In this document: piece by piece, positions 8,948-53,981 of the stretch
How the letters are laid out: every line of letters begins with the position of its first letter
Position numbering within the stretch: the stretch's first letter is position 1
Assembly: GCA_963776385.1 (NCBI GenBank)
Contig: CAVZME010000011.1
Span: 465,195-529,194 of the forward strand
Length of the DNA: 64,000 nucleotides
Direction of reading: 5' to 3'
Origin: an uncultured Chloroflexia bacterium
GTDB lineage: Bacteria; Chloroflexota; Limnocylindria; Limnocylindrales; CSP1-4
Position numbers and translations under genes: made by a program
The notes under the pieces: generated by a model
Told to the model about the DNA's origin: nothing
The model's database searches: none
Seen by the model: the letters and a program-made list of their open reading frames with translations, nothing else

Positions 8948-8986
8948 CCCCGATCGCGCCTGGGTGTCCCGCGCCCCGCCGTTCGC

Positions 8987-23537: not shown

Positions 23538-23555
23538 CCAACATTTCACGCACGA

Positions 23556-36762: not shown

Positions 36763-38042
36763 ATGGAGGGCGACCCGGACACGAGGCGTGATGCGCTGAC
36801 CCTGCGCTTCCTCGACCCGCGCCTCGAGCGGGACTTCCAGGCCGAGATGGCGCGCACGAACGGTCCACAGGCGCGGGTCGGGGCCGCCGTCGCGATCGGC
36901 CTGTGGCTCGCCGCGGCGCTCATCATCCCGGCAGTCGTCGACGTCGATCGCGCCGTCGTCACGGTCATCTGCGTCGGGATGGCGATCGCCAACCTGGTGG
37001 GCGTCGTCGGGTCGCGCTGGGCGACCACGCTCGATCGCCAGCAGTCCATCGGGTTCGCCCTGAACGGCCTCGCGGGCCTGGCGGTGCTCGCGCTCATCGC
37101 GGTCTCGGGAACGACCGACCGCTATGCCGCGCCGGCTCTCCTCCTGATCGCCATCTTCGCCTTCGTCGTGATCCGTCTGCGGTTCGTCTTCGCGCTGGTG
37201 GCAGCGGGCACGTACCTCGTCGGTTATGTCGTCGTCCTCGTGGCCGGACCGACACGCGGCACCGCACTCGATATCTTCCTGGTCGCCGCGGCCATCCTGG
37301 CCGGCCTCGCGGCGACCTACCTGCTCGAGCGTGGAGCGCGCGACGTCTTCGCGCAGCGGCGGGTCATCGAGCGACAGGCCGCCGAGCTGGCGGAGGCCCA
37401 TGCCACGTCCGAGCGTCTGCTCCTCAACGTCCTTCCGGGATCGGTCGCGGAGCGTCTCAAAGGTGGCGAGACGACGATCGCCGATGCCTACGACGACGCG
37501 ACGGTCCTGTTCGCCGATCTCGTCGGATTCACGCCTCTTGCCTCGAGCCTGAGCCCGGCCGAGACGGTCCAGCTGCTCGACCGGCTGTTCTCGGCCTTCG
37601 ACCAACTGGCAGCCCGCCACGGCCTCGAGAAGATCAAGACGATCGGCGATGCGTACATGGCGGTCGGCGGCGTCCCCGAGGTCTGCGCCGATCACCCGGA
37701 CGCGTCGTGGCGATGGGGCTGGAGATGCTGGACGCGGTCGCCGGTCTCGCGCGGGAGGTCGACCGTCCCCTGGATCTGCGCATCGGTATCCACACGGGGC
37801 CGCTCGTGGCCGGGGTCATCGGCGAGACGAAGTTCATCTACGACCTGTGGGGCGATACGGTCAACGTGGCGAGCAGGCTGGAATCCCAGGGCCTCCCGGG
37901 CGCCGTGCAGATGAGCGAGACGACCTGGCTTCGGTCCGGCCCGGTCACAGCCGAGCGACGTGGACCGATCGACCTGAAAGGTCGCGGGACCGTGGTCGCA
38001 TACGTGGCTCGACGAGTCGGGCAGGTCACCGGTCCGGACTGA
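36763..38042 (+). CDS. membrane-anchored class III adenylate/guanylate cyclase (6 TM), frameshift near 37690
   Basis: Six TM helices then VLFADLVGFTPLAS...KIKTIGDAYMAVGG. C-terminal LRIGIHTGPLVAGVIGETKFIYDLWGDTVNVASRLES in a second frame. Confidence 0.8.
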
Positions 38043-38118
38043 GTCGCTGCACAAGAACCGAAATCCGCGATCCGGACGCCATACCCTATCGAGCACGACC
38101 ACCGTGGCGTGCCGAAGT

Positions 38119-38689
38119 CGAGGCGACCGTGGACCAGCGAGGACTCGTCGAGCGAGCGCGGGGAGGCGATCATGACGCCTTCGCCGAACTCGCCCGTGGA
38201 GCCGTCACGCGGCTGGACCGGGCGGCCCGCCTCATCCTCCGCGATCCGGAACTGGCCCGCGACGCGGTCCAGGAGGCGCTCATCCGAGCCTGGCGCGACC
38301 TCCGGGGTTTGCGTGACCCCGATCGGTTCGACGCCTGGCTCCATCGCCTCACCGTCAACGCCTGTCTCGACATCGCCCGCCGCCGGCGCCGGCGCGTCAT
38401 CGAGGTCGAGCTCGACCCGATCGACATGCCCGACGTCGTCGACATGGCGGGCGCGCTCGCCGACCGCGAGATCGTCGATGCCGCCATGCGCCGGCTCGAC
38501 GAGAGCGGACGGGCGATCGTCGTCCTGCACTACTTCCTCGGGATGCCGCTGACCGACGTCGCGTCGACGCTCGGCATCCCGATCGGCACGGTCAAGTCGC
38601 GCCTCCATCGCGCCCTGGGCGAGATGCGAGTCGCGGTCGGGACCGAGCCCCCGACGCCGTCGCCGGTCCCGGGAGGGCAGGTCGCATGA
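38119..38689 (+). CDS. ECF-type RNA polymerase sigma-70 factor
   Basis: Region 2 (LARDAVQEALIRAWRDLRGL...FDAWLHRLTVNACLD) and region 4 (MPLTDVASTLGIPIGTVKSRLHRAL). Confidence 0.8.
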
Positions 38690-39957
38690 CCACCCCGACG
38701 CGCCTCGAGCGCACCCTGCCCGACGATCCTCGGCGACCTGGCGGCGGGACCCACCCCCGAATACCTCGATGACGTCTTCGCGCGGACCGCGCCGGATGCG
38801 GCAGCGGCCCGGCTGGACGTTCCCCGAAAGGTGGCTCCCGATGGCTGACATCACGCGCTCGCGGGCGTTCGTGCCCGCGCCTCCGTGGCGGCTGATCGCG
38901 ATGGCGCTGGTCGTCATCGCCGTGGTCGCCGTCGCGCTCTTCGCCTACGCCGGCGCCCAGCGGCACGTGCCGGCTCCGTTCGGCCCGGCCCGGAACGGCC
39001 TGATCCCATACGACAAGGACGGCGACATCTACGTCGGCGACCCAGTGACGGGGCAGACGAAGCTTGTCATCGGCGGTCTCGAAGAGGATACCGATGCGGG
39101 CTACTCGCCTGACGGCCTGCAGCTCGGCATGGCTGCGGCACGTTGCTGGTGGTGGCATCGACATCATCGTCTCGCGCGAGGACGGCGGTGGCGTGCGCCG
39201 CCTCAACGCCGCACCGCTCACAGACCTGACCGACGCGTACTACACCCCGGACAGTCGATACATCCTCGTGCGGCATCCGTTCGCCGGGTTTCAGCGGGTC
39301 GAATTGCTCGATGTCACGGGCACGGAGGCGCCACGGGAGCTCGCGGCAGGCTACAACCCGGACAACGTTTCCTTCCGTCCGCCTGATTCCGGCGAGATCC
39401 TGTTCCGCGGGCTCGTCGAGGGTCACTACGCGCATCTTCGTCATGAACGCGGATGGGTCGAACATCCGGCCGATCACTGCGATCGGTGAGACCGAGGACC
39501 TCGGAATGGATCTCAGCGACGTCGTGTACACCGCCGATGGCCAGCACATCCTGTACACCCGCTGGTTCCCCGACTCGATCCAGCTCTGGGAGATGGACGC
39601 CGACGGGAGCAACCAGCATCGCTTCGATTCGCAGGTGGAAGCCGCATGGAGCGGGCAAACGAGGATTTCGCCCGACGGCAGATGGATCGCCTACTGGCAC
39701 GTCTTCAACGACCGGCCCACGCAGCGAATCTCGGTCGATGCGGGCTGACGGCACGGGGCCGATCATCCAGACGGGACCGGAGCTCACGGGCGGGGCCGAA
39801 TGGATCTGGTCACCGGATTCCATCGAAGATCCTGATGATGCCTAGCGAGGACGCGGACCATCGGCAGCACTACCTTCTCGATCCGGCCGGCGGTGCCTGG
39901 ACGACAGTCGCGTGGCAGGGGACGGGCACGCCCGAGTGGCAGCGGCTCGCGCCCTGA
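38686..39957 (+). CDS. putative anti-sigma factor: cytoplasmic N-term, single TM, extracytoplasmic PD40/TolB-like beta-propeller, with at least 4 apparent frameshifts
   Basis: Start overlaps the sigma-factor stop (ATGA). [25 protein letters not shown]. Repeats [29 protein letters not shown] are spread over four frames. Confidence 0.45.
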
Positions 39958-40041
39958 CGCCGGTTTGCCGGGACTCCGGATGAGCATCGTCTCGGGGTCC
40001 CGGCGTCACCGAGTCGTCACGGACCAGGCCTATAGTTTCGC

Positions 40042-40715
40042 CATGAGATTCTTCACGTCCAAGCCCGATACCCTTCCCTCCCCCGCTGAAGCCCTTCCCG
40101 GCCGCTCCGAGCCGATCATGCAGCCGGGCATCCACCGGGTCCTCGGCACACCGCTTGCCGGGCCGTGGCCCGACGGGACGAAGACCGCGATCTTCGGTCT
40201 CGGCTGTTTCTGGGGCGCCGAAAAGGACTTCTGGCAGCTCCCCGGGGTTGTCACGACGGCCGTTGGCTACGCCGGCGGCTCCACGCCGAATCCCACCTAC
40301 GAGGAGGCCTGCTCGGGCAGGACCGGCCACGCCGAGGTCGTCCTCGTGGCCTTCGATCCGTCGAAGATCACCTACGAGCAACTGCTCAAGACCTTCTGGG
40401 AGAACCATGACCCGACCCAGGGCATGCGCCAGGGCAACGACATGGGCACCTCGTACCGGTCGATCATCCTGACCGCGAACGACGAGCAGCAGAGGCTTGC
40501 GGAGGCGAGCCGTGACGCCTACCAGGTCGAGCTGTCAGCCAAGGGCTACAAGACGATCACGACCGAGATCGTCGCCCGCCGGCCCGTTCTACTACGCCGA
40601 GGACTACCACCAGCAGTACCTCGACAAGAACCCCCGCGGCTATTGCCCGAACCACGCGACCGGCGTGAAGCTGCCGGAGGACTTCGTCGTGACGCCGCTG
40701 CAGTACGTGGACTGA
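40042..40715 (+). CDS. msrA: peptide-methionine (S)-S-oxide reductase MsrA, +1 frameshift in a C-run near 40577
   Basis: GLGCFWGAE active site, [48 protein letters not shown] tail. Frame breaks at gcccgccggccc. Confidence 0.85.
40628..40715 (+). repeat. msrA 3'-end repeat, copy 1 (native gene end)
   Basis: AACCCCCGCGGCTATTGCCCGAACCACGCGACCGGCGTGAAGCTGCCGGAGGACTTCGTCGTGACGCCGCTGCAGTACGTGGACTGA. Confidence 0.9.
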
Positions 40716-40773
40716 GGCCGCAGCGCGACGTGCCAACGAACTGGATACGACTCGATGGGTGAAGGGAGCCGCC

Positions 40774-41049
40774 ATGTACGCAGTCGTGGTTCGAGAGACC
40801 GGACAACGTGAGGCGATCGAGGGCAGCGAGGACCTTCTCAAGACGAACCTGCTGCCCCGTGTGCGTGAGGCGCCAGGGGTGGTGTCGGCCTCCTTCATGT
40901 CGGACGGGGACGGCGCGACCCTGAACGTACTCGTCTTCGAAACTGAGGAAGCAGCGCGAGCCGCTCTCCAGATCACCCGCAATGCCCCACGTCCAGGTTT
41001 CCTCGAGCTGGAGAGCGCCGACCTCTACCGGGTGCTCGCGCACTTCTGA
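40774..41049 (+). CDS. small ferredoxin-like (Dabb/ABM-type) protein, 91 aa
   Basis: MYAVVVRETGQREAIEGSE...GATLNVLVFETEEAARAALQ beta-alpha-beta pattern. RBS GAAGGGA. Confidence 0.45.
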   Translation: MYAVVVRETGQREAIEGSEDLLKTNLLPRVREAPGVVSASFMSDGDGATLNVLVFETEEAARAALQITRNAPRPGFLELESADLYRVLAHF

Positions 41050-41085
41050 TGACTCGACCTCGCGACATCGGCGAACGCTGCCGCC

Positions 41086-41202
41086 ATGCCTCGACAGTAC
41101 ACCGACCCCTCCGAGAACCCGCGCGGAAACTGCCCGAACCACGCCACCGGCGTGAAGCTGCCGGACGACTTCGTCGTGACGCCGCTGCAGTACGTCGATT
41201 GA
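41086..41202 (+). CDS. 38-aa peptide homologous to the MsrA C-terminal tail ([38 protein letters not shown])
   Basis: Own ATG. About 85% nucleotide identity to the msrA 3' end over 86 bp. Repeat copy 2 spans 41113..41202. Confidence 0.45.
   Translation: MPRQYTDPSENPRGNCPNHATGVKLPDDFVVTPLQYVD
41113..41202 (+). repeat. msrA 3'-end repeat, copy 2
   Basis: GAGAACCCGCGCGGAAACTGCCCGAACCACGCCACCGGCGTGAAGCTGCCGGACGACTTCGTCGTGACGCCGCTGCAGTACGTCGATTGA. Confidence 0.85.
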
Positions 41203-41300
41203 CGGCCGAATTGCGAGAACGACGGTCCGATCCTCTGCTGGCCTCCGCAATTGGTGACTTCGACGCCGGCGCCCGCTAGGCTTATGTCGGAGGTGCCCCG

Positions 41301-41549
41301 ATGACTGTCCAGGCGGCCTTGGAAGAGGCAATGCACCACGAGACTGCAGCCGGCGTGATGAACTCACTCATCCAACAGGGCGTATGGATCGCCGACGAAG
41401 ACACGATGACGGCGGCGATCCACAACGTGTATTGCGGCATCATGGCCGACCACGAGCATCCGAACGAGAAGGATCGTGACCAGGCTCGACAGATGATCGC
41501 CGCCATCGGTCAGTCCATCGAGGCCGGAACCGCGTCTGCAAAGGACTGA
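41301..41549 (+). CDS. hypothetical protein, 82 aa
   Basis: ORF with plausible start. No recognisable motif. Confidence 0.35.
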   Translation: MTVQAALEEAMHHETAAGVMNSLIQQGVWIADEDTMTAAIHNVYCGIMADHEHPNEKDRDQARQMIAAIGQSIEAGTASAKD

Positions 41550-41662
41550 TGGCGCTCGCCTGCCCCGGAACTCTCGCGCACTCCGAGCGGCCGTCGTTTG
41601 GTGACCTGTCCGATGATCCCGACAGTCGGTTCCAGGTGATGACCTGACCGGCTCGGGGTCCC

Positions 41663-41742
41663 GAGACTACTGCCCCGACCACTCGACCGGCGTGAAGCTG
41701 CGGGCCTACGTCGTGGTCACGCCGTTGCAGGACATGGACTGA
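41663..41742 (+). repeat. msrA 3'-end repeat, copy 3 (diverged, 3-codon deletion, no start codon)
   Basis: GAGACTACTGCCCCGACCACTCGACCGGCGTGAAGCTGCGGGCCTACGTCGTGGTCACGCCGTTGCAGGACATGGACTGA. Would encode DYCPDHSTGVKLRAYVVVTPLQDMD. Confidence 0.75.
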
Positions 41743-41848
41743 CCGGCGGTACACGCACCTGCCCTTGGACTAACCTGATGCGGCCGACCTGGAGACGGAT
41801 CAGTTTGGAGCCGGTCGACGACCCAAGCGTTGCGGAGGACCGACCCGG

Positions 41849-42274
41849 GTGATCGGAATCGATCGTTTCGTCGATGACTATCGGTCGGCGCTGGACGCGT
41901 TCTTCAGGGGAGACCCGGAGCCCGCCAAGCGGTTGTACTCCCATTCCGATGACGTGTGCCTGAACAACCCGTTCGGGCCTCCGGCGCACGGTTGGAGCCA
42001 GGTTGCTGAGGCCATGGAGCAGGCCGCTGCCAATTATCGGGACGGCCGAGGGCTCGGCTTCGATCGCGTTGCTGAGTATCTGACCGACGAACTGGCTTGC
42101 ATCGTCGAGGTGGAGCACTACGAGGCCAAGGTAGGCGGGAGCAGCGTCACTTCGACGATCGACTTGCGCGTTACCACGGTCCTTCGGCCGGAGGACGACT
42201 CATGGAAGATCGTTCACCGCCACGCGGATCCGATCACGTCGGCTCGATCGGCCAGCTCAGTCATCGAGCAGTAG
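41849..42274 (+). CDS. NTF2-like (SnoaL/ketosteroid-isomerase-like) protein
   Basis: About 140 aa with an alpha+beta cone-like hydrophobic pattern. SDDVCLNNPFGP. Tentative. Confidence 0.45.
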   Translation: MIGIDRFVDDYRSALDAFFRGDPEPAKRLYSHSDDVCLNNPFGPPAHGWSQVAEAMEQAAANYRDGRGLGFDRVAEYLTDELACIVEVEHYEAKVGGSSVTSTIDLRVTTVLRPEDDSWKIVHRHADPITSARSASSVIEQ

Positions 42275-42511
42275 CCTCACAGCCACGCGATAGCTCTTCC
42301 GCATCGGCGGTGCCACCGGAGGGAGGATCGATGAGGCAGGGGAACCCCGACGTCGCGATCGTCGTACTCGGCCAACGGGACGATGCGGCGCCTAGGCGAT
42401 ACGGGTCGACCGTTGGCCGAAAACGGCACGAAGACGACTGAGCATCCGGCCTCCATTCGCGACGGGCACCGGCTTGCCGACGATCCCCACCCGACGATCT
42501 TCGGCCTGAAC

Positions 42512-43537
42512 TCACGGCACGAGCACGGCTCGCCCGCGCACTGTCCGTGCGTGGAGCCTTTCGTACGCCCTCGAACCGTCTTCGAGGCTGAATTGCTCCG
42601 TCTCGACCGTGATCGCGCCGGACCGCGCGAGGTCGAGCAGCTCGTACAGCTCCGAGCGGGTCCCCCAGACGGGGCGGCGGACGTTGATCCCACTCGGGAG
42701 CGTGCCTGCGCCGACCGGGATCGCGCCTGGGCCGAGGCCGACCATGGCGATGTCGGACCATCGGCCGACCAGATTCGCTGCCAGGTCGGCGGCCTCCTGC
42801 AGTCCGACGAAGTTGAAGACCGCTTCCACGCCTCGGCCACCGGTAAGGTCGCGCACGGCCTGGATCGACGAAGGGTCGGATAGGAATGCGGCGTGAGCGC
42901 CGACATCACGAGCGAAGCCGAGCTTGTCCTCGCTGATGTCGAGCGCGACGACGAGGGCGGGCGAGAGAGCGCGCAGCAGCTGGATGGCAAGATGGCCGAG
43001 ACCGCCCACACCGATCACAACCGCCGTCGAGCCCGGGACAAGCTTGGGTAGCGACGGCTTGATCGCGTGGTAGGGCGTGAGTCCGGCGTCGGTGAGCGGG
43101 ACGGACCGGACCGGGTCGAGGTCTCCGAGCGGAACGAGGTGCCGCGCGCTTGGCACGAGCAGGTAGTCGGCCATGAACCCGGGAGCATCGATGCCGGGCC
43201 ACGGGACGCCTTCGCCGATGCAGTAGTTTTCGGCGCCTGCGGCGCATGCCCTGCAGGATCCACAGCCCCAGGCGCCGTAGACCGCGACCGGGTCGCCTTC
43301 CCTGATGCCGGTGACCTCGCTGCCGAGTCGCGCCACGATGCCAGCGCCCTCGTGCCCCAGCGTCAACGGCAACGGGGTCGTGAACTCCTCGGGCGCGAGG
43401 CTCATGAAGTACGCGTCCGAGTGGCAGACCCCTGCTGCGGTCGTCTTGATCAGGACTTCGCCCGGTCCCGGCTGCGGGATCGGCACCTCGCGGATCTCCG
43501 GAGGCCGCCCGAACGCCGTGTACTGCAGCGCCCGCAT
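42512..43537 (-). CDS. zinc-dependent alcohol dehydrogenase (MDR family)
   Basis: GVCHSD catalytic zinc motif, GHEGAG, Rossmann GVGGLGHLAIQ. Confidence 0.9.
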   Translation of the reverse strand: MRALQYTAFGRPPEIREVPIPQPGPGEVLIKTTAAGVCHSDAYFMSLAPEEFTTPLPLTLGHEGAGIVARLGSEVTGIREGDPVAVYGAWGCGSCRACAAGAENYCIGEGVPWPGIDAPGFMADYLLVPSARHLVPLGDLDPVRSVPLTDAGLTPYHAIKPSLPKLVPGSTAVVIGVGGLGHLAIQLLRALSPALVVALDISEDKLGFARDVGAHAAFLSDPSSIQAVRDLTGGRGVEAVFNFVGLQEAADLAANLVGRWSDIAMVGLGPGAIPVGAGTLPSGINVRRPVWGTRSELYELLDLARSGAITVETEQFSLEDGSRAYERLHARTVRGRAVLVP

Positions 43538-43780
43538 TCGCCTTCTCCTCTCTACCGACCGATCGGAGCGTACACGCCTCGATCGATCAATACTCGCCAC
43601 CCATCACGCATAAGTCCCTTCGAATGGGGACGACGACGAAGACCCTTGAACTGCCTTCGGACGCCCTTGCTTGGCTCCGACAGCCGGAAGCGACGAAGCC
43701 GTGAACGACAGCGATACGGCAGTCCGCTGACCTGTCTCAGAACCCCGCGGCTCCGGCCCGAACCCCGCCACCGGCTCAAG

Positions 43781-43930
43781 ATGCCGGACTTCTTCGTCGT
43801 CTTTCCAGTGGTCGTCCGTCGACTGGCCATAACCCGCATAGAGAACCCGCGCGGCTACTGCCTGAACCACGCGACCGGCGTGAAGCTGCCGGACGACTTC
43901 GTGGTCACGCCGATGCAGTACGTGGACTGA
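43781..43930 (+). CDS. 49-aa peptide with MsrA-tail homology ([49 protein letters not shown])
   Basis: Own ATG. The N-terminal part looks like a partial internal duplication of the same repeat (PDFFVV vs PDDFVV). The C-terminal 29 aa match the MsrA tail. Confidence 0.4.
   Translation: MPDFFVVFPVVVRRLAITRIENPRGYCLNHATGVKLPDDFVVTPMQYVD
43841..43930 (+). repeat. msrA 3'-end repeat, copy 4
   Basis: GAGAACCCGCGCGGCTACTGCCTGAACCACGCGACCGGCGTGAAGCTGCCGGACGACTTCGTGGTCACGCCGATGCAGTACGTGGACTGA. Confidence 0.85.
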
Positions 43931-43951
43931 CCGGTGACGCCATCACAGCAG

Positions 43952-43987
43952 AAGAGCCGGTCCGGCAGTATCCGGCCCGGCTCTTCA
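43952..43987. terminator. hairpin between convergent genes (GAAGAGCCGG-16 nt-CCGGCTCTTC)
   Basis: 10-bp perfect stem just after repeat copy 4 and before the minus-strand 53-aa gene. The loop itself contains a CCGG..CCGG sub-hairpin. Confidence 0.4.
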
Positions 43988-44042
43988 TATCCGTCCTCGG
44001 CCTGAGGCTTAGGTCGAGCGCACCAAGTACCTCAGATCGGGA

Positions 44043-44203
44043 CCGTGACCACGGCCGACGCGATCGTGGTCGCAACAGCTGCGGCGAGGATCTTCTTTCG
44101 CTTGTCCTCGTCTTTCACCCATTCGACGACGACTTCGGCTGCCGCCTTCGCCTGTTCCTCCGACAGTCCCGCCCGATCAACCAATTCCTTGATGAGGTCG
44201 TCC
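44043..44203 (-). CDS. small protein (53 aa) with strong RBS
   Basis: MDDLIKELVDRAGLSEEQAKAAAEVVVEWVKDEDKRKKILAAAVATTIASAVVTVPI. GAGAGGAAAGG lies 6 nt upstream of the ATG. Not in the ORF track (below 60 aa). Confidence 0.45.
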
Positions 44204-44388
44204 ATCTCACGCCTTTCCTCTCATCGACGTCGCCGAAAACCGATGCGGCCTTGTTCTACCGCTCCTGACCTGGCTTCGCCAGAGTCGATCGGCCTTGATT
44301 CCCAGGGACTCAGAACGACGTCGGACTGACGCCGCTGGAGTAGGTCGGGCGCGATCCCGCCCGTTACGATGACGCCGGAGGTGACCCG

Positions 44389-44976
44389 ATGACCGACCCG
44401 ATCGCCGACATCATCGGCGACTACCGCGCGTTCACGGCGCTGCAGCGCGACCGCCTCGCCGCACGCGGCATCGACATCGCGCCGTACGAGCTGAGCCACC
44501 TGGCGTTCCGCGTCCCCGAGTGGGACCAGTACGTCCACCTCCGGACGATCCTCGAGCGGCACGCAGCCGCCAACCGCGAGAACGTCTGGAACGGACGGCC
44601 GATCTCCCTGATCATCCTCGCCGAGCCGCTCCGCGTCCTCGACGGCCAGGTCATCCCGATCATCGAGCTCATCCCGCCCGTCCACCAGCGGGTCTACAAG
44701 ATGGGGATGGAGCATTTCGGCGTGGTCGTCGGTGAGGAGGTCGACGCCTTCTCCCGCCGGCACCGGGCAGCCCTGACCGGCCAGCAGTTCCAGAGCGCGG
44801 CGAACGAGCCGTATTACGTCCTGTTCGAGGACTTCACCCACGTGAAGTTCCACCGCCGCTCGCTGCGCGCGGCGGTCGAGATGGAGGGCCGGACGTTCGA
44901 CGGCATCCACCACGTCGACGACTGGGTCCCGCAGCGGCTGGTCACCGCGACCGGCCCGAACCCCCTGCCCCGGTGA
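44389..44976 (+). CDS. YecM-like/VOC-fold protein (tentative)
   Basis: 195 aa. YELSHLAFRVPEWDQYVHLRTILERH and FEDFTHVKFH resemble glyoxalase-fold metal-binding sites. Confidence 0.4.
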   Translation: MTDPIADIIGDYRAFTALQRDRLAARGIDIAPYELSHLAFRVPEWDQYVHLRTILERHAAANRENVWNGRPISLIILAEPLRVLDGQVIPIIELIPPVHQRVYKMGMEHFGVVVGEEVDAFSRRHRAALTGQQFQSAANEPYYVLFEDFTHVKFHRRSLRAAVEMEGRTFDGIHHVDDWVPQRLVTATGPNPLPR

Positions 44977-45163
44977 ACCCGCCAGTGACGTCGCCGGGTA
45001 CCTCGACCTGGCCGGGCGCGTCGTCGTCGGTGGCGGCCGCGATGACCTAGCCCGCTGTACGTTGCCCCGCGGCGCATGCTTGAGCGAGGATGTGCCAAGC
45101 GTCCCAGGGTGCGAGAGGATGACCGTCGCCGTCCTTCGCGCCGATGACCGCCCGGAGGGCCGA

Positions 45164-45634
45164 TGGCTGCATCACTGCTCGTTCGTCCCGACGCGGACGA
45201 GACCGGCTTCGCGAACAATGCTGGAGTCCGCATCGCGTGGCGCTGTTACGGGAACGGTCCCGAGACCATCCTCTTCATCCCGACATGGAACTTCGTTGAC
45301 TAACGCGTCCTGCGTCATCAGGTGGATGGGCTTCGGGACGGAGCCGAAACCTCCGGCCTCCGCCGGGCTGGCATCCGAATGGCCGAACCCTGAGGACATC
45401 TCGCAAGACGACCTCGAACGGATGTGGGCCGAGATCGCGACCGAGTTCGGGGACGACGCGGTGCGGACGCTGAACACTACGGTCAGTGGGCCTCTGCCGG
45501 CCGAGGTCATCGAGGCGTTGCGGGCATCCAGCACACCCGGCGCAGCGAGCGCCAATGACTTCGTCGCGTCCCACGAGTACCTGCGCAGGCTCGTTGGGGA
45601 TCGGCGACCGCGCCGTCGGACCGCGGAGCGCTGA
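45164..45634 (+). pseudogene. alpha/beta-hydrolase remnant (N-terminal 45 aa, in-frame TAA, then an out-of-frame C-terminal segment)
   Basis: MAASLLVRPDADETGFANNAGVRIAWRCYGNGPETILFIPTWNFVD* resembles the start of an alpha/beta hydrolase. The locus is too short (about 470 bp) for a full enzyme. Confidence 0.35.
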
Positions 45635-45666
45635 TCCGTCAGGGGGTCCGTGAGGGCTGAGCGGGC

Positions 45667-47325
45667 TCAGGACGGGGTCGACGCCGCCCGGCGCTGGCTG
45701 CGGTCCTCGTGGACCTGGCGGATGGCGGTCGACCCGTCGCCGACGGCCGCTGCCACACGCTTCACGGGGTTGCTGCGGACGTCACCTGCCGCAAAGACAC
45801 CCGGCATGGTCGTGGCGAGCCCGAGTCCGTCGCTGGGGTCTGGCCGTTGTTCACCCGTGAGGATGTACCCGCGATCGTCGCAGGCGACCTCCGGCGGGAG
45901 CCACGAGGTCCGAGGGGCCGCCCCGATGAGGATGAACACCGCGGCCGCTGCAACCTCCTCTGTCGCGTCCGTTGCCCGATCGCGCAGGCTGAGGCCCGCC
46001 AGCCGATGGTCACCGCGGACATCGACGATCTCCGTGTTCAACCGGACATCGATGTTCTCCGCGTTGGCGATCTCGCGGACCAAGTAGTCCGACATGGTCT
46101 CCTCGATCGATCCACCGCGGACGAGCAAGGTGACCTGTGCCGCGTACCGGGCAAGGTGCATCGCGGCGGATCCGGCCGAATTCGCGCCTCCGACGACGTA
46201 GACGCGCTCTCCCTGGATCGCGCGCGCCTCACTCGTCCCCGAGCCGTAGAAGACGCCCCGACCGACGAGGGCCTCCAGGCGGTCGATGCCCATCCGCCGA
46301 TACGAGACCCCTGTTGCGACGACGACGGCCCCCGTCCTGAGCTCGGACGCATCGTCGAGCGTCACGACGAGGTCGTCGGCGTCGCGCCGCAGGGCGATCG
46401 CGGAGCGGCCGAACACGAACTTCGCGCCGAACGTGAGGGCCTGCTGGAGTGCCCGGGCAGTCAGCTCGGCACCGGTGACCCCGGCCGGGAAGCCGAGGTA
46501 GTTCCGGAGCATCGGGCTCGAGCTCGCCTGGCCGCCGATACTGGTCGATTCGATGACCGTCACCGTCAGGCCTTCGGATGCGCCGTAGACCGCTGCCGCG
46601 AGTCCGGCCGGACCGCCGCCGATGACGGCGACGTCGACTCGGCCCTCGCCCACCGATGCCTGGACGCCCAGGGCGGCCGCGATCTCGGATTGGCCGGGTC
46701 GCGCCAGGGCTCGACCATCGCGCAGGATGACGACCGGCAGGGGGCCGTCGATCCCTGCCTCCTCCAGCAGGGCCCGGCCTTCGGGAGACTGGGCGTCGCG
46801 GAAGGCGAACGGCAGGAGCAGCCGCGCGAAAACGTCCCGAAGTTCGCCGGCCGCCGAATCCCAGGGATCGCCCACGATCGTGAGGGCGACCCCGGCTCGA
46901 TCCGTCTCGTGCGTCCATCGCGCGAGCGACGCGGTCAACACGGTGTGGAACTCCTCGTCGGCGCGCCCGAACGGATGGGCCAGCCACGTGTCGATCTCGC
47001 CGACGGTCATCGCCTGGACGGTGGCATCGACCGCGGTGAAATCGGCCCAGTCGGTGAGCAGGACCCGTTGGGAGGTGGGGAACAACGGCCGAGACCGGGC
47101 AAGCAGCGAGGCACCCGTCTCCTCCGCCATCCAGTGGTCGGCGAGGATCAGTGCGACCGGCCGCCCGGCCCGGTGCAGATCCTCCAGTCGTCGCATCGCG
47201 TCGGCAGCGGACGACTCGGCGGTGACGTCATAGTCGTGACCGTACCGACGGTCGACCGTCTCGAGGAGGAGCGAACGCGACGTGTCGTCGTCGTCCACGA
47301 GGAGGATGACGGGAAGCTCTGACAT
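45667..47325 (-). CDS. receiver (REC)-like domain fused to a thioredoxin-reductase-like FAD/NAD(P) oxidoreductase
   Basis: N-term VILLVDDDDTSRSLL...ALILADHWM (receiver-like acidic pocket). C-term VAVIGGGPAGLAAAVY, GGANSAGSAAMHL (two Rossmann GxGxxG/A motifs), GVFAAGDV. Confidence 0.75.
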   Translation of the reverse strand: MSELPVILLVDDDDTSRSLLLETVDRRYGHDYDVTAESSAADAMRRLEDLHRAGRPVALILADHWMAEETGASLLARSRPLFPTSQRVLLTDWADFTAVDATVQAMTVGEIDTWLAHPFGRADEEFHTVLTASLARWTHETDRAGVALTIVGDPWDSAAGELRDVFARLLLPFAFRDAQSPEGRALLEEAGIDGPLPVVILRDGRALARPGQSEIAAALGVQASVGEGRVDVAVIGGGPAGLAAAVYGASEGLTVTVIESTSIGGQASSSPMLRNYLGFPAGVTGAELTARALQQALTFGAKFVFGRSAIALRRDADDLVVTLDDASELRTGAVVVATGVSYRRMGIDRLEALVGRGVFYGSGTSEARAIQGERVYVVGGANSAGSAAMHLARYAAQVTLLVRGGSIEETMSDYLVREIANAENIDVRLNTEIVDVRGDHRLAGLSLRDRATDATEEVAAAAVFILIGAAPRTSWLPPEVACDDRGYILTGEQRPDPSDGLGLATTMPGVFAAGDVRSNPVKRVAAAVGDGSTAIRQVHEDRSQRRAASTPS

Positions 47326-47453
47326 GGCCCGTATCGTATCCAACCAGAGCGACGTTTCCGTGGACCTCCGCACGCTTGTGCCGAGGCGATACGCTGGTCG
47401 ACTGGCAGCGCCACGGGCCTCCCGCCGTGGGCGCCGAAAGGAGGAACACCACG

Positions 47454-47849
47454 ATGGCCGAGCACCCGAACGTAGCCTTCGTCCGCCGCGCGATGCAGGC
47501 GATGAACGAGATGGACATGTCGAAGGCCGAGGAGGAGATGGCGGTCGTCGATGCCTTCATGGCCGACGACATCGTCTGGCACGAGATCGGCCGCGCCGAG
47601 CCGCGCCGCGGCAAGGACGAGCTGCGCGCGTCGATGTCCGAGTTCAGCGACACGACGATCAAGTACGACCTTCACGACGTCGTCGCGAACGACGACCACG
47701 CGATCGCCCTCGGCACGGCGACTGCCACGCGGAACGGCAAGACGCTCGAATACCGGACCGCCGAGATCTTCCACATCCGCGATGGCCGGGCGACCGAGCG
47801 CTGGGCCTTCTCGGACGACACGGCAGCGATCATCGCCTTCTTCTCCTAG
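47454..47849 (+). CDS. SnoaL-like (NTF2 superfamily) protein
   Basis: RBS AAGGAGG. 131 aa with FVRRAMQAMNEMD...DDIVWHEIG...ERWAFSDD pattern. Confidence 0.7.
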   Translation: MAEHPNVAFVRRAMQAMNEMDMSKAEEEMAVVDAFMADDIVWHEIGRAEPRRGKDELRASMSEFSDTTIKYDLHDVVANDDHAIALGTATATRNGKTLEYRTAEIFHIRDGRATERWAFSDDTAAIIAFFS

Positions 47850-47875
47850 ACCCGGGCGTGCTTCGGAGGCAGACG

Positions 47876-48259
47876 ATGCTGAGTGACCATCTGGTGTTCC
47901 CGATCCTTCTCTCGACCGACCTCGATGCCAGTCGGAGCTTCTATCACGACGTCCTCGGGCTGGAGATCCTGCGCGAGGACGAAGGCGATCGGATCGTCTT
48001 CCGATGCGGTGGAGGGACCCAGCTGGTCGTGACGAGCAGCACGATCGGCACGTCGGATAGCCAGACGCAGATGGCCTGGCGGGTGCCGGACATCCGCGCC
48101 GCCATCGACGACCTCCGGGCGCGCGGCGTCCAGATCGAGGAGTACGAGGCGCCCGACCCGGTGACGACCGACGGCGTCGCCGACATGGGCCACTCCTGGG
48201 CCGCCTGGTTCGTGGATCCGAGCCGAAACGTCCTGTCGGTGGTCCAGCCGAAGGGTTGA
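47876..48259 (+). CDS. VOC (glyoxalase/bleomycin-resistance) family protein
   Basis: HLVFPILLSTDLDASRSFYHDVLGLEI...WFVDPSRNVLSVVQ. Confidence 0.75.
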   Translation: MLSDHLVFPILLSTDLDASRSFYHDVLGLEILREDEGDRIVFRCGGGTQLVVTSSTIGTSDSQTQMAWRVPDIRAAIDDLRARGVQIEEYEAPDPVTTDGVADMGHSWAAWFVDPSRNVLSVVQPKG

Positions 48260-48262
48260 GCC

Positions 48263-49021
48263 CTAGACCATGCCGCGAGCGGCCCAGGCGAGAGCGGTGA
48301 CGATGAACGGCCCCTCGCCGAGCCTGGCCAGGCACAGCTCCCGGAGATCTGCCTGACGCTCCGGGTCAAGGCCTGCAACGAACGATCCAGCGGGGCCGAC
48401 CCCACCGGTGAACGGCTCCCACCACGCATCGAACGTCGGGTGCTCGAGGCTCACAGATAGGGTCGCATCCTGGATCTCGCGGAGGCCGGCGAGCGTGAAC
48501 AACTCGACCAGGTGGCCCTCGCGGACGCCCGGGAGGCGTGATTCGTCGTCGACGTCGGGAACCAGCTGACGTGCCGCCGCCCAGAAGACCGCAAGAGGGC
48601 CATGCAGACCGCCGTGATCCCAGACGCATGCCGCGACGACCCCGCTGCTGCGGGTCACGCGGGCCATCTCGGTCAAGCCGGCGACGGGGTCCGGCATGAA
48701 GTGGACGACGAGCTGGGCGAGGGTCGCGTCGAAGGCTCCGTCGGCGAACGGCAGACTGTCCGCGAACGCCAGATGTGCCTCCAGCCCGGGGTTCCGCGCC
48801 TGAACGGCCGCGACGAACGATGCAGATGGATCGACGGCCGCCACGTTCGCGACCCCGACTCGACCGATCACCTCGGCCGTGAGGGCGCCCGGACCGGAGC
48901 CGACATCGAGGACGCGCTGGCCTGCCCGCACTCCGGCGAGATCCGCGAGTTGACCCGAAAGCAGCACCGAGTACCGACCCATGAAGTCGTCGTACGCCTC
49001 GGCCGCGACATCGAAGCCCAT
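48263..49021 (-). CDS. class I SAM-dependent methyltransferase
   Basis: Motif I VLDVGSGPGALT. Acidic loop AAVDPS. Post-I FDATLAQLVVHFM. Confidence 0.8.
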   Translation of the reverse strand: MGFDVAAEAYDDFMGRYSVLLSGQLADLAGVRAGQRVLDVGSGPGALTAEVIGRVGVANVAAVDPSASFVAAVQARNPGLEAHLAFADSLPFADGAFDATLAQLVVHFMPDPVAGLTEMARVTRSSGVVAACVWDHGGLHGPLAVFWAAARQLVPDVDDESRLPGVREGHLVELFTLAGLREIQDATLSVSLEHPTFDAWWEPFTGGVGPAGSFVAGLDPERQADLRELCLARLGEGPFIVTALAWAARGMV

Positions 49022-49099
49022 GCGGCCGAATCTACGCCGGTCGCTGCCGCCGGTGGGCGATGTGCCGTCGCCCTCGCGGTCGCCCACGCCACCAAGCGC

Positions 49100-52000
49100 C
49101 TAGGCTGAGACCGGCGGGACCTCGGCGCGCGGGTTCGAGTCGGATCTGGCGCCCGTCGCGCGACCGGCATCGGCCGGTTTCGCGGCCTTCTCCCGGTAGC
49201 GACTCACCAGACCGACGGCGCCGCGCTCCTCGAAGAACGTCTCTGCTTCGCGCAGGCCCGCCGCCGCCTCCGGGAAGTGATCACCGGCCAGGTGTCCGAC
49301 CGCGATCTGGAAGAGCGCGCGTACCCGAAGGCGCAGAGAGTCGTTCAGGGTCCGCAATGCCGTGACATATGCCTGACGGCTATCGTCCCAGCGGCCCTCC
49401 AGGAGCGCCTTTGCGGTCGCGCCGACCTGCCGCAACGCCATGTCGGCCGGCCGCTCGGTCGTCGCGATCGTCGAGATCGCCTCGACGATCGCGTTCGCCC
49501 GGCCCGAATCAGCCGCCGCCATCGCGGCAAGGAGAGACAGGTGGAGGGCTGCTTCGAAGATCTCCTTGTTCTCCCAGCCCGCTCGACCGATCTCGTAGGC
49601 GTCAGCCCAGCGACCCTCGAGGAACCGGATCTCGCCGACGAATTGCCGAACGCCGGCCGTGCCCTGAGCGCTGACCTGGACGACGTCGGTGGCAAGCAGC
49701 TCACCCAGGAGCCGCTCGGCCTCCTCGAGCTGGCCCGCGTATGCCATCCGGAGTCCCAATTCAGATCGGAACCAAGCTCGATAGAAATCCGATGCCGATG
49801 GCTCCTCATCGCGCATCTCGGCGAGCCATTCATCCCAGCGACCGACATCGAAGGCGTTCCCGAGGCCCATGCCGACGGCCTGCTGGATCCACGTCCGTTG
49901 GCCGTAGCGCATCGCGATCTCGTAGATCTCCCGAGAGAGGGCGAGGGTATCGCCGAGGCTCACAGGCGCGATGAGTCCCAGCAGGTTGTTGCGAGCCCGC
50001 AGCGACGTCATTGGATCGCCCAGGCGGTCCGCGACGACGATCGCCCCACGAAGGCCCACCTCCGCTTCGGTGAGCAGTCCAGCGTTCATCTGCGCCGTCG
50101 CCTTCGTGATGATCACCTCGATGATGACGATCGGACTCACCAGGGTCCAACTCTGCAAGACCTTGTCCGCCCAGACGATCGCCTCGGGCGAGCCGCCGAT
50201 CATCAGTGCCCGCGCAAGCTCGCTCTGGGCGAGTGCGATCTCGGTCGCAGGTGGCAGGTCGGCGACCTCGGCGAGCCCGGCGCGAAGGATCTCGATCGCG
50301 GCCTTGTCGCCATGCTCGGCCAGATGCGTGCGCGCCTCGAGCGCGCGTGTCCGAAGCACCCCGAGCCGATCGCCCAGTGACGTGAAGATCTGCTCCGCTT
50401 CATGGACATGTGCGAGGCCCTGCGAGACCAGGGCCGACAGTGTCGCGACGTCCGCAGCGCGCTCATGAAGGATCGCCCGCTCCCTCGCGTCGGGGGTCAC
50501 GGTGATCGCCAGATCCAGGTAACCCAGCGCTCCGATCAGTGAGTGCAGCGCCGTCGCGCGATCGGCGGCAGCTCGAAGCGCGACCCGGGCCTGAGCGGCG
50601 AGTGCATCGGCTTCCGGGCCGGCTGGCGTCGCATGGAACGCGGCGAGGTAGTGGTTGGCGAGGACGCCGGCCAGCTCGTCGTCGCCAAGCAATTCGAGAT
50701 AGCGCGCTGTCGCGATGTGCTTCGTGCGGCGCTCGCGCTTGGCGAGCGAGGCATAGGCCACCTCCCGGACGACGCCCTGGACGAAGCGGAACTGGCCCCG
50801 TTCCGGCGAGCGCGGGTCGGCATCGAGGACGATCAGCTGGTGGCGCACGAGCCGATCGAGCGCGGCCGTCACGGCCGTCGCGTCCACGTCGGTCAGGGCG
50901 AGCAGCGAGGGGACGGTGAAGCTCAGACCCAGGACGGCAGCATCCGTCAGCAGCGCCCGGTCCTCTGGCGTGAGCGTATCCAGGCGTGCCGCGATAAGCG
51001 CCTGGAGCGTCGCCGGCACGGTCAGGTCGGGCAGGTCCACCGCCAGCGTGTACCGATCGCCCTCGGCGGACGGCAGAAGGACGCCACGGTCGATCAGCAT
51101 CCGAAGTGTCTCGACAGCGTAGAGCGGGATGCCTTCCGCCCGTTCGACGATCGCGCGCATGGCGTGCTCCGGGAGGCCAGTGACGAGGCCACCCAGGAGG
51201 GTTCGCATGTCCTCGGGCGACAACGGCTCCAGGTGGATGGTGGTCGAACTGCGGACCGTCGCGCCCCACCCGGGACGGCGTTCGAGCAGGTCGGGTCGCG
51301 CTTCCGCGAGAACGAAGATGGGCGAAGCCCGAGCCCAGGTCAGAAGGTGCTCGATGAAGTCGAGCAGGCCCTGGTCGGCCCATTGCAGGTCCCAGAAGAC
51401 CAGGATCGTCGTCGCTTGATCCGCGAGTCGCTCGAAGAAGGTCCGCCACGCCGCGAACAGTTCCTCGCGTGTCTCCGCTGGCAGGTCATCGAGCCCCAGC
51501 AGGCCGGTCAGTCGCGGCTCGATCCAGCGGCGTTCGACCGGGTCCGGGACCATCTCGTCGAGCATCGTCCCGAGTCGCTGTCGCGCCGTGGCCGTATCGT
51601 CCAATTCGGCGATGCCGGCTCGGCCGCGGACGATCTCGGCGAGTGCCCAGTAGCTGATCCCGTCGCCGTACGACGGCGAGCGACCCTCATGCCAGAGGAT
51701 CGTCTCGACCACGCCGTCGAGGTACTTCTCCAGCTCCCAGCCGAGACGGCTCTTGCCGATGCCTGCCTGCCCGACGATCGTCACGAGCCGCGGCTTGCCC
51801 TCGCGTTGCGTGGCATGGAACTGGTCCGTGAGCGCCCGGAGCTCCTCATCGCGACCGACGAACGGTGGCTCGAGGGCGGCGCTCCGCCCTGACCCGCCGA
51901 GGCGCGCGACGACAGCGAGGGCTTGCCAGCTCGGCACCGGCGCGGTCTTGCCCTTCAGCGCCTGCTCACCCACCGGTTCGAAGGCGATGGCACCGGATGC

Positions 52001-52675: not shown

Positions 52676-52718
52676 GGATTCAGGATAGCCGAGCGGATGA
52701 GCCGGGCGATCCGCAGGG

Positions 52719-53690
52719 TCACACCGGCACGAACACCTCGGCCCAGTCATCGCGGACGCTGACGACGGTCCAGCCGTCACGGGCGGCCTGCTCCAGGGCT
52801 GCCTCGGACCCGTTCGTGTAGGCGAACTCGCGCTCGGCATCGTCATGGAGGATGAGAAGCCGAAGGAACGGTTTGTCGGCATGCTGGGCGTATTCGAGCA
52901 TCTGGATGTCGCCGTTCGAATTGCCGCCGGCCAGCAGGGGCCGGCGGCCGACCCGGCTCCAGATCCGTATCGGCTTCTGGGGGCCGTCGTCGAGGTACTC
53001 GGGAGCCGTACTGTGCGAGATCGTCCCACCACGCCCGTCCGAGGTGTAGGTCAGCTCGACCGTGCTGCCGATGACATGCTCGCGCGGGATCCCGTAGATC
53101 TCGGCGGTGACGGGACGCATGAAATCACGCCCCCCGCCGGAGGCGATGTAATTCGTGAAACCGTTCGCTTCGAGATAGCGCAACAGCTCGACCATCGGCA
53201 GGTACGCCGTCTGGAGATAACCGCGGCCAAGCGTCGGATGTCGCGCCGTGCGCAGGAACCCGTCTGACCTCGCCTCGAAGTCGTCGACGCTGACGCCGGC
53301 GAACGCTCCGATGACGCCGCCCGCGAGTGCCGGCAGGTCGCTGTCGTCGCCCGCGTAGTGCTTGTCCATGGCCTGCGCGAGCCACCCGTACTCGCGCGTC
53401 CAGGCGGCCTTCCACGGCTGGCGTTCGCGCAGGCTCTCGTCGGCCTCGGCCATCTCGTAGAGCCGGCGCAGGATGAAGTCGAGCTGGATCGGCATCGGTT
53501 TCTCGGTCCACAGCGTCCCGTCGTTGTCGAAGACGGCGACCCGATCCTCGACCGGGACGGGCGGCGAACCGTCGGCGCCCGTCACCCGCTCGACGAATTC
53601 CACGATCGACTTCTTTGCGGCCGCATCGCGCCAGCTCGGGAGGTCGTCCATCTCGAATGCATACCCCCTATCGGTCTCGGTGATGAGCAT
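52719..53690 (-). CDS. HAD-superfamily hydrolase
   Basis: Motif I VAVFDNDGTLW. Alpha/beta core with cap. Start set at MLITETDRGY. Confidence 0.7.
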   Translation of the reverse strand: MLITETDRGYAFEMDDLPSWRDAAAKKSIVEFVERVTGADGSPPVPVEDRVAVFDNDGTLWTEKPMPIQLDFILRRLYEMAEADESLRERQPWKAAWTREYGWLAQAMDKHYAGDDSDLPALAGGVIGAFAGVSVDDFEARSDGFLRTARHPTLGRGYLQTAYLPMVELLRYLEANGFTNYIASGGGRDFMRPVTAEIYGIPREHVIGSTVELTYTSDGRGGTISHSTAPEYLDDGPQKPIRIWSRVGRRPLLAGGNSNGDIQMLEYAQHADKPFLRLLILHDDAEREFAYTNGSEAALEQAARDGWTVVSVRDDWAEVFVPV

Positions 53691-53981
53691 CCCAAGCGTA
53701 GACTCCTTGACGGTGGTGGACGGATGGCGACGCACGATCGAACGACCTCTCGGAAGGGCGACGACACGGCGGCCGGGACGGGCGGCTTCATCGGTCAGGT
53801 CGGCTTGTTCGAGACGGCCAACGGTCTGCCTCACGGACCGATGGCCGTTGGTGTTCGCCATCACGCTGGCTATGGTCGTCATCCCACTGACCCGGCTCGC
53901 GCGCATGATCACCCGCCGCTGACCGGACGCGCGCTACGCTGTCCGCCGTCAGGGTCAGGACGACGCGAGGAGACGCAGACG

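Follow-up and report, generated by a model that had tools for sequence, protein, structure and literature searches.

How does the end of a housekeeping gene come to be repeated behind the gene itself, with a different small gene between one copy and the next? The question is raised by a 64,000-nucleotide stretch of DNA from an uncultured Chloroflexia bacterium (assembly GCA_963776385.1, contig CAVZME010000011.1, positions 465,195 to 529,194; hereafter the window, with positions counted from its first nucleotide), in which the peptide methionine sulfoxide reductase gene msrA (40043-40715, plus strand; Pfam PMSR, E 2.7e-50) is followed by an array of diverged copies of its own 3′ end. The nearest relatives of the encoded protein come from metagenome-assembled genomes (MAGs) of Candidatus Limnocylindria, Chloroflexota, with 82% identity at the locus that we label L001 and 80% at L002. 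The Limnocylindria, formerly Ellin6529 or CSP1-4, are abundant in soil, uncultured and poorly studied, and we know of no report on gene exchange among them. The answer that we favour, on balance and without great confidence, is an accretion-type array that would have had a site-specific origin at the 3′ end of msrA and would later have been reshuffled by recombination.

An initial annotation of the window had described msrA-tail repeats arranged as gene plus repeat, gene plus repeat, and in this it was right. A repeat search recovered a 98-nt family of four copies, namely 40618-40715 at the end of msrA, 41105-41202 (88% identical to the resident copy), 41645-41742 (72%) and 43833-43930 (87%), all on the same strand as msrA and each terminating at TGA. 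A hidden Markov model (HMM) of these four copies found them again in the 64-kb window with E values of 1.7e-29 to 1.7e-25. It also picked out a fifth copy, with E 1e-7, at 43739-43807, and a weak sixth match at 44312-44346, whose E value was 0.097 over the whole window and 0.0018 when a 1.3-kb part was searched by itself; no further copies were found elsewhere in the window. Of the units in the window, one is thus resident and four or five are displaced, co-oriented and with small modules between them.

The first unit (40607-40715, plus strand) is the resident tail itself, the last ~36 codons of msrA, which served as the reference for the family (E 9e-34; this and the three corresponding values below were obtained by nhmmer with a 113-nt model) and is of the same tail type as in all 94 resident genes compared. 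It is followed by module 1 (40716-41092, plus strand), with one open reading frame (ORF) of 91 aa at 40774-41049, and by unit 2 (41093-41202, plus strand; 88% to unit 1, E 6e-28), which opens with a 26-nt box, GACAGTACACCGACCCCTCCGAGAAC (41093-41118), of a class present in many other arrays, and continues as a tail copy to TGA. Module 2 (41203-41644, plus strand) contains one ORF of 82 aa (41301-41549) with its own −10-like and Shine-Dalgarno-like sequences; homologues of this ORF lie in other msrA islands (L021 14046-14345, L141 and L198). Unit 3 (41645-41742, plus strand; 72%, E 7e-21) is the most diverged copy, with a degenerate 5′ box. It had been described as having lost three codons, but its conserved part aligns with unit 1 without a gap and only the 5′ end has diverged. 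Module 3 (41743-43717) carries a SnoaL-like ORF on the plus strand (41849-42274) and a Zn-dependent alcohol dehydrogenase (ADH) on the minus strand (42512-43540), identities that the annotation had proposed and that Pfam bears out (SnoaL_3/DUF4440, an NTF2-like family, and ADH_N/ADH_zinc_N). The 82-aa ORF belongs to no Pfam family and the 91-aa ORF has no Pfam match, beyond a weak one to the ActVA-Orf6/ABM fold (E 0.25); exact-protein look-ups of the 82-aa ORF and of the ADH returned no record.

What had been taken for a partial internal duplication in the next copy is a separate, decayed full-length unit, 4a (43718-43826, plus strand; nhmmer E 1e-7 and reading of the sequence), with a canonical box, GGCAGTCCGCTGACCTGTCTCAGAAC, and the end GTCGACTGG. 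It abuts unit 4 (43827-43930, plus strand; tail copy to TGA, 87% to unit 1, E 3e-29) with no module between them, and the ATG with which the 49-aa ORF of unit 4 had been credited is a mutated Leu codon of this decayed neighbour. Such abutment of unit to unit is also seen in L136, L098 and L193 and in the predicted protein P0001; in P0001, as in P0002, the reading frame runs on from one abutting unit into the next (...QYVD-W-RQYTDMCEVPNGYC...). Module 5 (43931-44296, minus strand) has one ORF of 57 aa (44032-44205, minus strand), and the module has homologues behind msrA in L199 and L131 (83% over 344 nt). The weak sixth match corresponds to unit 5 (44297-44351, plus strand; E 0.097 / 0.0018), probably an internally deleted remnant in which ...GACTCAGAAC is joined to GACGTCGGACTGACGCCGCTGGAGTAGGTCG, and its position is the exact start of the YecM module in other loci. 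In the window this YecM-family module occupies 44352-44990 on the plus strand (ORF 44389-44976, Pfam YecM), and more than 12 other msrA islands contain it too, the homologous blocks being 74-93% identical in nucleotide sequence (L092, L094, L124, L126, L129, L130, L150, L165, L196, L204, L207 and L209, and inverted in L095).

Comparison of units across loci shows that a unit of ~108 bp is composed of a 26-nt box and a ~82-nt copy of the last 27 msrA codons plus stop. The canonical box, (G)GCARTAS-GCTGAC-NNN-TCT-GAGAAY, is present under a strict pattern in 18 of 46 displaced units, among them window units 2 and 4a, with additional degenerate forms recognised by eye, and is missing from all 94 of the resident genes, which read ...EDYHQQYL[D/A]... 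or a close variant at this place. As aligned, the box is a diverged copy of the msrA codons QYLDKN with a 6-nt insertion, and msrA homology in units of this kind begins sharply at GGCAGTAC, (G)GCAGTAC, after unrelated module DNA. The displaced copies are not derived from the present msrA sequence, as the annotation had stated; the 5′ extension GAGAACCCGCGCGG, which it regarded as lacking in msrA, proved to be homologous to the resident AAGAACCCCCGCGG and to form part of the conserved 5′ box. The box is not translated as such, for in-frame TAG codons occur in several copies and frameshifts in others. The tail that follows it is of the host's own type in L014, L100 and L166, most visibly in L014, where the resident tail is very different (...GVACPLGLGVTATD*) and the displaced unit consists of the usual box and L014's own tail type. 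A box that is lacking in the target gene, followed by a host-type tail, matches in its sequence what would be expected of an attR junction, that is, a P arm joined to host sequence.

The tail part of the displaced units retains the marks of a coding sequence. The units nearly always end in a stop codon, most have an intact GYCPNH...QYVD frame, and their variability by codon position (0.18/0.18/0.28) is biased towards the third position as it is in resident tails (0.13/0.14/0.24); together, the bias and the intact frames indicate that displaced units descend from functional msrA tails or still exchange with them. Some displaced copies are longer and extend 5′ to EDYHQQ or FYYAED (L005, L132, L162 and L142), and L005 and L162 have a second box type, TGCGAGGACTACCACCAGCAGGAC, in common. 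The msrA gene of L005 (10001-10729) itself bears an in-frame scar, PFYYAED-14 aa-FYFAEDYHQQ, and its displaced copy (11682-11808) starts at EDYHQQ; the scar looks as if inserted DNA had supplied a longer spare gene end along with 42 extra nucleotides, now translated within MsrA. The longer fragments and the scar both indicate that elements arriving at this site bring a spare gene end with them.

Other signals were looked for in or around the units. An Rfam search of 38000-48000 with E up to 1 gave no match, a promoter and terminator consensus scan gave nothing over shuffled background, and an AT-rich dif-like palindrome (28 bp, two 11-bp arms, 6-bp spacer) was not evident in the unit by inspection.

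The array is not a peculiarity of this window. When 79 msrA loci from many phyla were each searched with their own last 150 nt, extra tail copies were found only in the Limnocylindria loci L005, L014, L016 and L021 and in L046, which is from an actinomycete. Scanning metagenomes for a degenerate form of the tail yielded 120 contigs, mostly from soil; from these contigs, the window and eight related genome loci, 117 oriented Limnocylindria-type loci were obtained, mostly contigs of 1-3 kb. Two or more units are present in 29 of these 117, and displaced units occur in a third (11 of 33) of the loci whose sequence continues for at least 2 kb past the resident tail. In every locus the units in arrays are co-oriented with, and downstream of, a single intact msrA. 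Units lie a median of 562 nt apart (interquartile 389-974, range 11-3469, n=62), with usually one small gene in between; in L209, whose MsrA is 85% identical to that of the window, ten units occur in 8.7 kb, with a single small gene or gene pair between neighbours. The architecture recurs in dozens of independent assemblies, short-read and long-read, from JGI, ENA and NCBI. Only one unit was found away from msrA, at L216 10123-10226, where it is followed by a DUF2652 gene with no msrA within 10 kb upstream; its neighbours are sarcosine-oxidase/MTTB-type genes, and the contig ends 1.8 kb beyond. In IMG/VR, degenerate tail patterns returned nothing or chance 20-mer matches, and no phage or provirus with an msrA tail. 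In public protein predictions, at least 56 'hypothetical proteins' of 27-86 aa (P0001-P0056) and several truncated 'PMSR' calls are displaced msrA-tail units.

The repeats occupy the first, msrA-proximal 3.6 kb of a longer hypervariable island (40716-56981), as defined by synteny with L001 and L002. Synteny with L001 is kept upstream of msrA, lost exactly at the msrA stop, and regained at 47864-48253 and again from 55634; in L002 the conserved penicillin-binding-protein gene that lies at 56982 in the window is found only 1.4 kb past msrA, and synteny is back at about 57042. The locus behaves as a flexible island in that its content varies between conserved flanks, synteny is regained 3-16 kb on, mobility genes are absent from it and crossovers lie in its flanks. 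That cassette content should vary among relatives was a consequence of the original proposal, and it does: L001 and L002 have one tail and other downstream genes, whereas L021 has four units, L005 two and L209 ten.

Beyond the array, the part of the island at 48263-55634 (7.4 kb), missing from L001, encodes a methyltransferase, a HAD hydrolase, a KDPG-aldolase-like ORF and a 1310-aa protein with zinc-ribbon, adenylate/guanylate cyclase and AAA_16 (STAND-like) domains. The genes upstream of msrA vary from locus to locus as well. Directly upstream of msrA in the window (38109-39957) lies a pair of genes for an extracytoplasmic function (ECF) sigma-70 factor and a PD40/Tricorn-like protein, missing there in L001, and a similar pair is found in L209 (15411-17265) as a unit-flanked cassette downstream of msrA; the placement of this pair on opposite sides of msrA in the two loci suggests that the flexible gene pool is not limited to the downstream side.

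Small genes recur across islands in changed order, including those for YecM, DinB-like, DUF2652, glyoxalase, SRPBCC and SnoaL-fold proteins, the 82-aa and 57-aa ORFs of the window, and the ECF sigma and PD40 pair. Cassettes are shared by lineages in which msrA itself has diverged considerably. The msrA bodies of L115 and L156 are 70% identical and the cassette behind them 98.7% over 1007 nt; for L100 and L166 the figures are 74% and 97% over 1402 nt. Near-identical cassettes behind msrA genes of only 70-74% identity indicate horizontal, and recent, movement of cassettes. In both pairs, the high identity begins at about position 83-100 of the unit model, in the last ~12-30 nt of msrA, and in L100/L166 as in L095/L173 the shared cassette stops precisely where box meets tail (position ~25) in the next unit. 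Exchange can also proceed without adding a unit. L151 and L197, with msrA genes 99% identical, differ by a 950-nt methyltransferase module right after the stop, and here the last 40 nt of the tail have been exchanged by a crossover within it. Such junctions leave no doubt that homologous recombination is at work in the tails and around them.

Three apparent junctions were set aside. A 1.18-kb 'cassette' difference between L184 and L195 is an insertion sequence unrelated to the units, the arrays being otherwise 99.8-100% identical; it is IS481-like, 1178 bp long (L184 1730-2907), with an rve-type transposase, terminal inverted repeats and the target duplication CCTAGAT. A 66-nt difference between L131 and L199 just past the stop is a terminator hairpin indel, and sharp module boundaries, for example that of the DinB-like gene, which had been considered as element ends, reflect conserved coding sequence beside unalignable intergenic DNA.

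A precedent for site-specific insertion at this place is provided by L046, which is Herbidospora cretacea NZ_BBXG01000007.1. Here an 8.8-kb, pSAM2-type actinomycete integrative and conjugative element (AICE) separates msrA, past its stop codon, from a displaced piece of the msrA 3′ end (2094-10944). It encodes RepSA (7253-8797) and a large serine recombinase of 507 aa (9333-10856), whose gene starts about 20 nt from the displaced fragment (10873-10944), and it also carries Imm21 and DUF4365 genes; the core CACCAGCAGTAC is common to both msrA copies. A serine-integrase element thus makes use of the msrA 3′ end in an actinomycete, and, as read from these junctions, at least one element with an integrase of its own truly attaches at the msrA codons for DYHQQY and brings its own replacement gene end. 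Literature searches found no mention of msrA as an attachment site or AICE target; AICEs that have serine recombinases and lie in protein-coding genes have been described (PMC3218068).

It is the attR-like box, taken together with this element, that makes serial integration at the msrA 3′ end, as the initial annotation had proposed, the best-fitting origin of the array, and the co-oriented repeats of the target's 3′ end, with a putatively element-derived arm beside many of the displaced repeats, are what an accretion array would present. Small modules without an integrase would each carry one unit and would enter by recombination of that unit with the resident msrA tail, giving the order msrA with intact tail, module, box and older tail, older array; msrA would stay functional, and every newcomer would displace the earlier units downstream. 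The founding and integrating steps would be site-specific and catalysed in trans, the recombinase coming either from a rare master element or from a gene at some other place in the genome, much as for CIMEs, ccr-less SCC elements or those Dehalococcoides ssrA islands that lack an integrase. After integration, homologous recombination between the ~85-108-nt repeats, and between the msrA tails of different strains, would excise, swap and delete cassettes, and would also homogenise the tail part of the units with the host's own tail. The circular cassette intermediates, the trans-acting recombinase and the order of events are inferred.

This account has evidence to contend with. The annotation had seen no recombinase at the array, and Pfam searches of ~45 window ORFs agree, with no match to the Phage_integrase family among them. 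None was found either in the precomputed Pfam annotation of seven long contexts (L209, L211-L216) or in Pfam searches of the large ORFs of L001, L003, L005 and L021; regular-expression searches of 692 kb for tyrosine-recombinase boxes I and II and the serine-recombinase N-terminal motif gave spurious matches only, and tblastn searches with the L046 serine integrase and RepSA against 217 loci (2.04 Mb) returned self matches only. No tyrosine or serine recombinase, transposase or fragment of these was found near any Limnocylindria array among the ~22 loci with long flanks, a cognate recombinase at the site being present only in L046; nor was a recombinase found in ~70 inter-unit modules examined, and the modules of the window leave no space for integrase remnants. 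If master elements were as frequent as they are in Dehalococcoides or Prochlorococcus, some would be expected among those ~22 loci. Breakpoints, moreover, fall at model positions 13 (L165 versus L115/L156), 25, 50 (L168/L178), 58 (a mosaic, L166 unit 2 versus the L145 resident tail), 83 and 98-110, scattered rather than at one fixed site, and the block shared by L100 and L166 has a host-specific tail on both sides, so that a single fixed crossover would need secondary events. Not every module is flanked by a unit, and genes that are homologous are found in either orientation. Synonymous-site conservation is not raised in the resident tail (pi3 0.39, versus 0.42 in the gene body, p 0.22). All of this weighs against a site-specific mechanism, although secondary homologous recombination could have blurred an originally fixed crossover site.

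The same observations lend credit to the foremost rival, that homologous recombination did everything and no dedicated recombinase was ever involved. A single ancestral partial duplication of the msrA 3′ end, from CAGTAC onward, would have provided a portable homology of ~108 nt; circles of module plus unit would loop out by RecA-type recombination, and these circles, or linear DNA from relatives, would re-enter by single or double crossover within ~75-85 nt, the msrA tail being a mere conserved anchor of a flexible island. The absence of a cis-encoded recombinase at any locus examined, the scatter of breakpoints over the tail and the lack of any special nucleotide constraint on the resident tail would then be expected. 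The displaced tails match the host tail type in L005, L014, L016 and L100, as repeated exchange predicts; L151 and L197 provide a clean replacement, with the crossover in the tail and no added unit; and the apparently sharp limits at ~25 and ~100 fall where box-bearing units and resident tails cease to be homologous. On the other side, the homology is short (75-108 nt) and only 72-90% identical, and thus a poor substrate for RecA. Recombination alone leaves unexplained why arrays are restricted to msrA and why the second box type recurs in L005 and L162, and it sits uneasily with a box that is recognisable across hosts with 30% difference in msrA, though the neighbouring intergenic DNA is unalignable, and with an integrase-borne element at the same msrA region in L046. 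Nor do we know of any hotspot driven purely by recombination at which fragments of the anchor gene form arrays, and this too counts against it. We regard recombination alone as possible, if unlikely.

Whichever route is preferred, the arrays may serve as a gene-capture platform, in which single-gene cassettes are moved within and between genomes by way of the ~108-bp msrA-tail docking unit, either by a distant recombinase or by general recombination alone. We put this forward as a doubtful, tentative proposal; if it were true, the platform would be a functional analogue of the integron that lacks an adjacent integrase or a folded attC and docks on the 3′ end of a housekeeping gene.

The likeness to integrons raises the question of whether each unit is an attC-type site, folding in single-stranded form and serving as substrate for an integron-type integrase that would insert it into an attI-like site at the end of msrA. 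Arrays of up to nine single-gene cassettes, each followed by a ~100-bp repeat and differing in content between relatives, do invite the comparison, but no integrase adjoins the array at any locus examined, and the 46 displaced units have no conserved secondary structure on either strand (RNAalifold 0.0 kcal/mol for the top and −0.6 for the bottom, with z scores against column shuffles of 0.35 and −0.78). The units are, moreover, direct copies of coding sequence, and the cassette genes lie on both strands (the ADH, the 57-aa ORF and several L209 genes) with their own promoter-like and Shine-Dalgarno-like sequences. An integron-like origin is very improbable and largely refuted by these results.

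Scarcely more can be said for the suggestion, offered in the annotation as an alternative, that the units are small genes for stand-alone peptides of 30-50 aa with the MsrA C-terminal Cys motif. It could draw on the open frame that is kept in nearly all displaced units with its third-position-biased variability (0.18/0.18/0.28), on the 56 such short ORFs called in public data, and on in-frame ATGs in window units 2 and 4. The position of the start codon is not conserved, however, and that of the window's 49-aa ORF is the mutated Leu codon of a decayed neighbour; several units have an in-frame TAG in the box just before the conserved part and no later start, and others are frameshifted, truncated or stop-bearing (L209 13174, 13716, 15170, 17260 and 18011; window units 3, 4a and 5). 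That the units are conserved like coding sequence follows from their origin in functional msrA tails and from exchange with these, and we consider peptide genes highly improbable.

The window msrA does contain a 1-nt frameshift near 40570-40590, where GTCGCCC stands against GTGCCC in L209 and the frame changes after ...TTEIV, so that the ORF list gives the gene in two frames and continuous reading needs correction; frameshifts are also found in the related long-read MAG loci L021 and L213, and that of the window is likely to be a sequencing or assembly error rather than the mark of a true pseudogene. That the array as a whole could be an assembly artefact, made of collapsed or chimeric copies of a single msrA end, might be argued from these frameshifts but is barely credible, as the copies differ by 12-28%, the flanks are unique to each and dozens of assemblies made independently of one another show this architecture. 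These three readings, attC recombination of the integron type, stand-alone peptides and assembly artefact, each come close to being excluded.

A second repeated gene end lies elsewhere in the window. The 3′ 47 nt (23495-23541) of a tRNA-Gln(CTG) gene (23466-23540) recur with 100% identity at 27854-27900 and bracket ~4.3 kb of small genes, and such a pair, judged as a repeat, is a classic att-type signature. No integrase was found by Pfam inside this segment, which encodes a META-domain lipoprotein, a DUF4332/HHH protein and ORFs without matches. This repeat, without an integrase, and the msrA array together suggest that att-flanked segments lacking an integrase are a theme of this genome. Another tRNA-Gln(CTG), 81% identical, is located at 6270-6344. 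Within the META-domain gene (23722-24687) there is a 117-nt direct repeat (77%; 23920-24036 and 24355-24471), probably an internal domain duplication, as Pfam finds two META stretches.

The arrays mark a defined site of gain and loss for small stress- and metabolism-related genes, with cargo such as SnoaL and SRPBCC folds, glyoxalases, ABM monooxygenases, dehydrogenases, YecM, DinB-like proteins and toxin-antitoxin pairs, and they reveal recent transfer between lineages whose msrA genes differ by 30%. If the cassettes do move without a cis-encoded enzyme, the range of routes by which cassette arrays can be built would be wider, and repeated coding 3′ ends would offer a searchable signature for like platforms at other genes. 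For annotation, the units account for dozens of spurious 'hypothetical proteins' of 30-80 aa and truncated 'PMSR' calls in public metagenomes.

How do these arrays compare with known systems? The initial annotation knew of no described arrangement in which the 3′ end of a protein-coding gene is the recurrent junction, and this was mistaken, for such use is known in the staphylococcal cassette chromosome (SCC) at orfX/rlmH, in the integrative and conjugative elements ICESt1/3 and the cis-mobilizable elements (CIMEs) at fda, and in phage 21 and e14 at icd, to which the islands at the 3′ end of ssrA in Dehalococcoides may be added as tandem insertions at a gene end. SCC and the ICESt1/3-CIME family resemble the msrA arrays in the recurrent use of a coding-gene 3′ end, in their direct repeats, in leaving the target intact and in the reliance of some members on recombinases acting in trans. 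Their repeats, however, are near-identical and 15-30 bp long, the elements measure from several kb to tens of kb and many of those at the site encode a recombinase, whereas the msrA repeats are long, diverged and coding-like, and recombinase-bearing members were not seen.

The closest parallel comes from the same phylum. In the tandem ssrA islands of Dehalococcoides, a conserved 15-bp motif that does not match ssrA lies beside each 20-bp direct repeat, and several islands are without integration genes and have been proposed to be cis-mobilizable (PMC3146451; McMurdie et al. 2011). Like the msrA arrays, they are arranged in tandem downstream of one essential single-copy gene, are bounded by repeats of its 3′ end, have an element-derived motif upstream of each repeat and include members without integration genes. 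They differ in that the target is a tmRNA, the repeat is of 20 bp, the islands are many kb in size and 16 of them have a serine-recombinase module; the msrA arrays target a coding tail, with a diverged repeat of ~82 nt (108 with the box) and modules that are mostly single genes of 0.3-1 kb. The Herbidospora AICE has in common with the arrays the target gene, nearly the same place within it (the DYHQQY codons), the supply of a replacement end and the displacement of the original one, but it is a single, self-sufficient 8.8-kb element with integrase and RepSA, from a different phylum and with no array, and in comparison with its core the homology of box-bearing Limnocylindria units starts ~6 nt later, at CAGTAC.

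Integron arrays share with the msrA arrays the single-gene cassettes, each followed by a ~100-bp repeat, and the variation of content among relatives; the msrA arrays differ in having no adjacent integrase, no attC-like fold, genes on both strands with their own expression signals, and repeats that are coding ends. In the tycheposon islands of Prochlorococcus, newcomers push older ones inward and partial tRNAs are left scattered (bioRxiv 10.1101/2020.12.28.424599), so that the displacement of older arrivals and the partial target-gene copies that remain in the island are common to both systems; the tycheposons, however, carry tyrosine recombinases, of which fragments persist in the islands, while the msrA units are regular, numerous and recombinase-free. 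The minimal mobile elements of Neisseria (PMC3787668) are comparable in that recombination is anchored in conserved flanking genes and the content is replaced from strain to strain, but they lack repeated fragments of the anchor. The use of a gene's 3′ end as a junction is therefore already known, and what sets the present case apart is the choice of the msrA coding tail, the diverged, coding-like repeats of 82-108 nt, the small and regular cassettes, up to nine per array, the lack of recombinase genes at the site across many independent assemblies, and the wide occurrence of such arrays in an abundant, uncultured class of soil bacteria.

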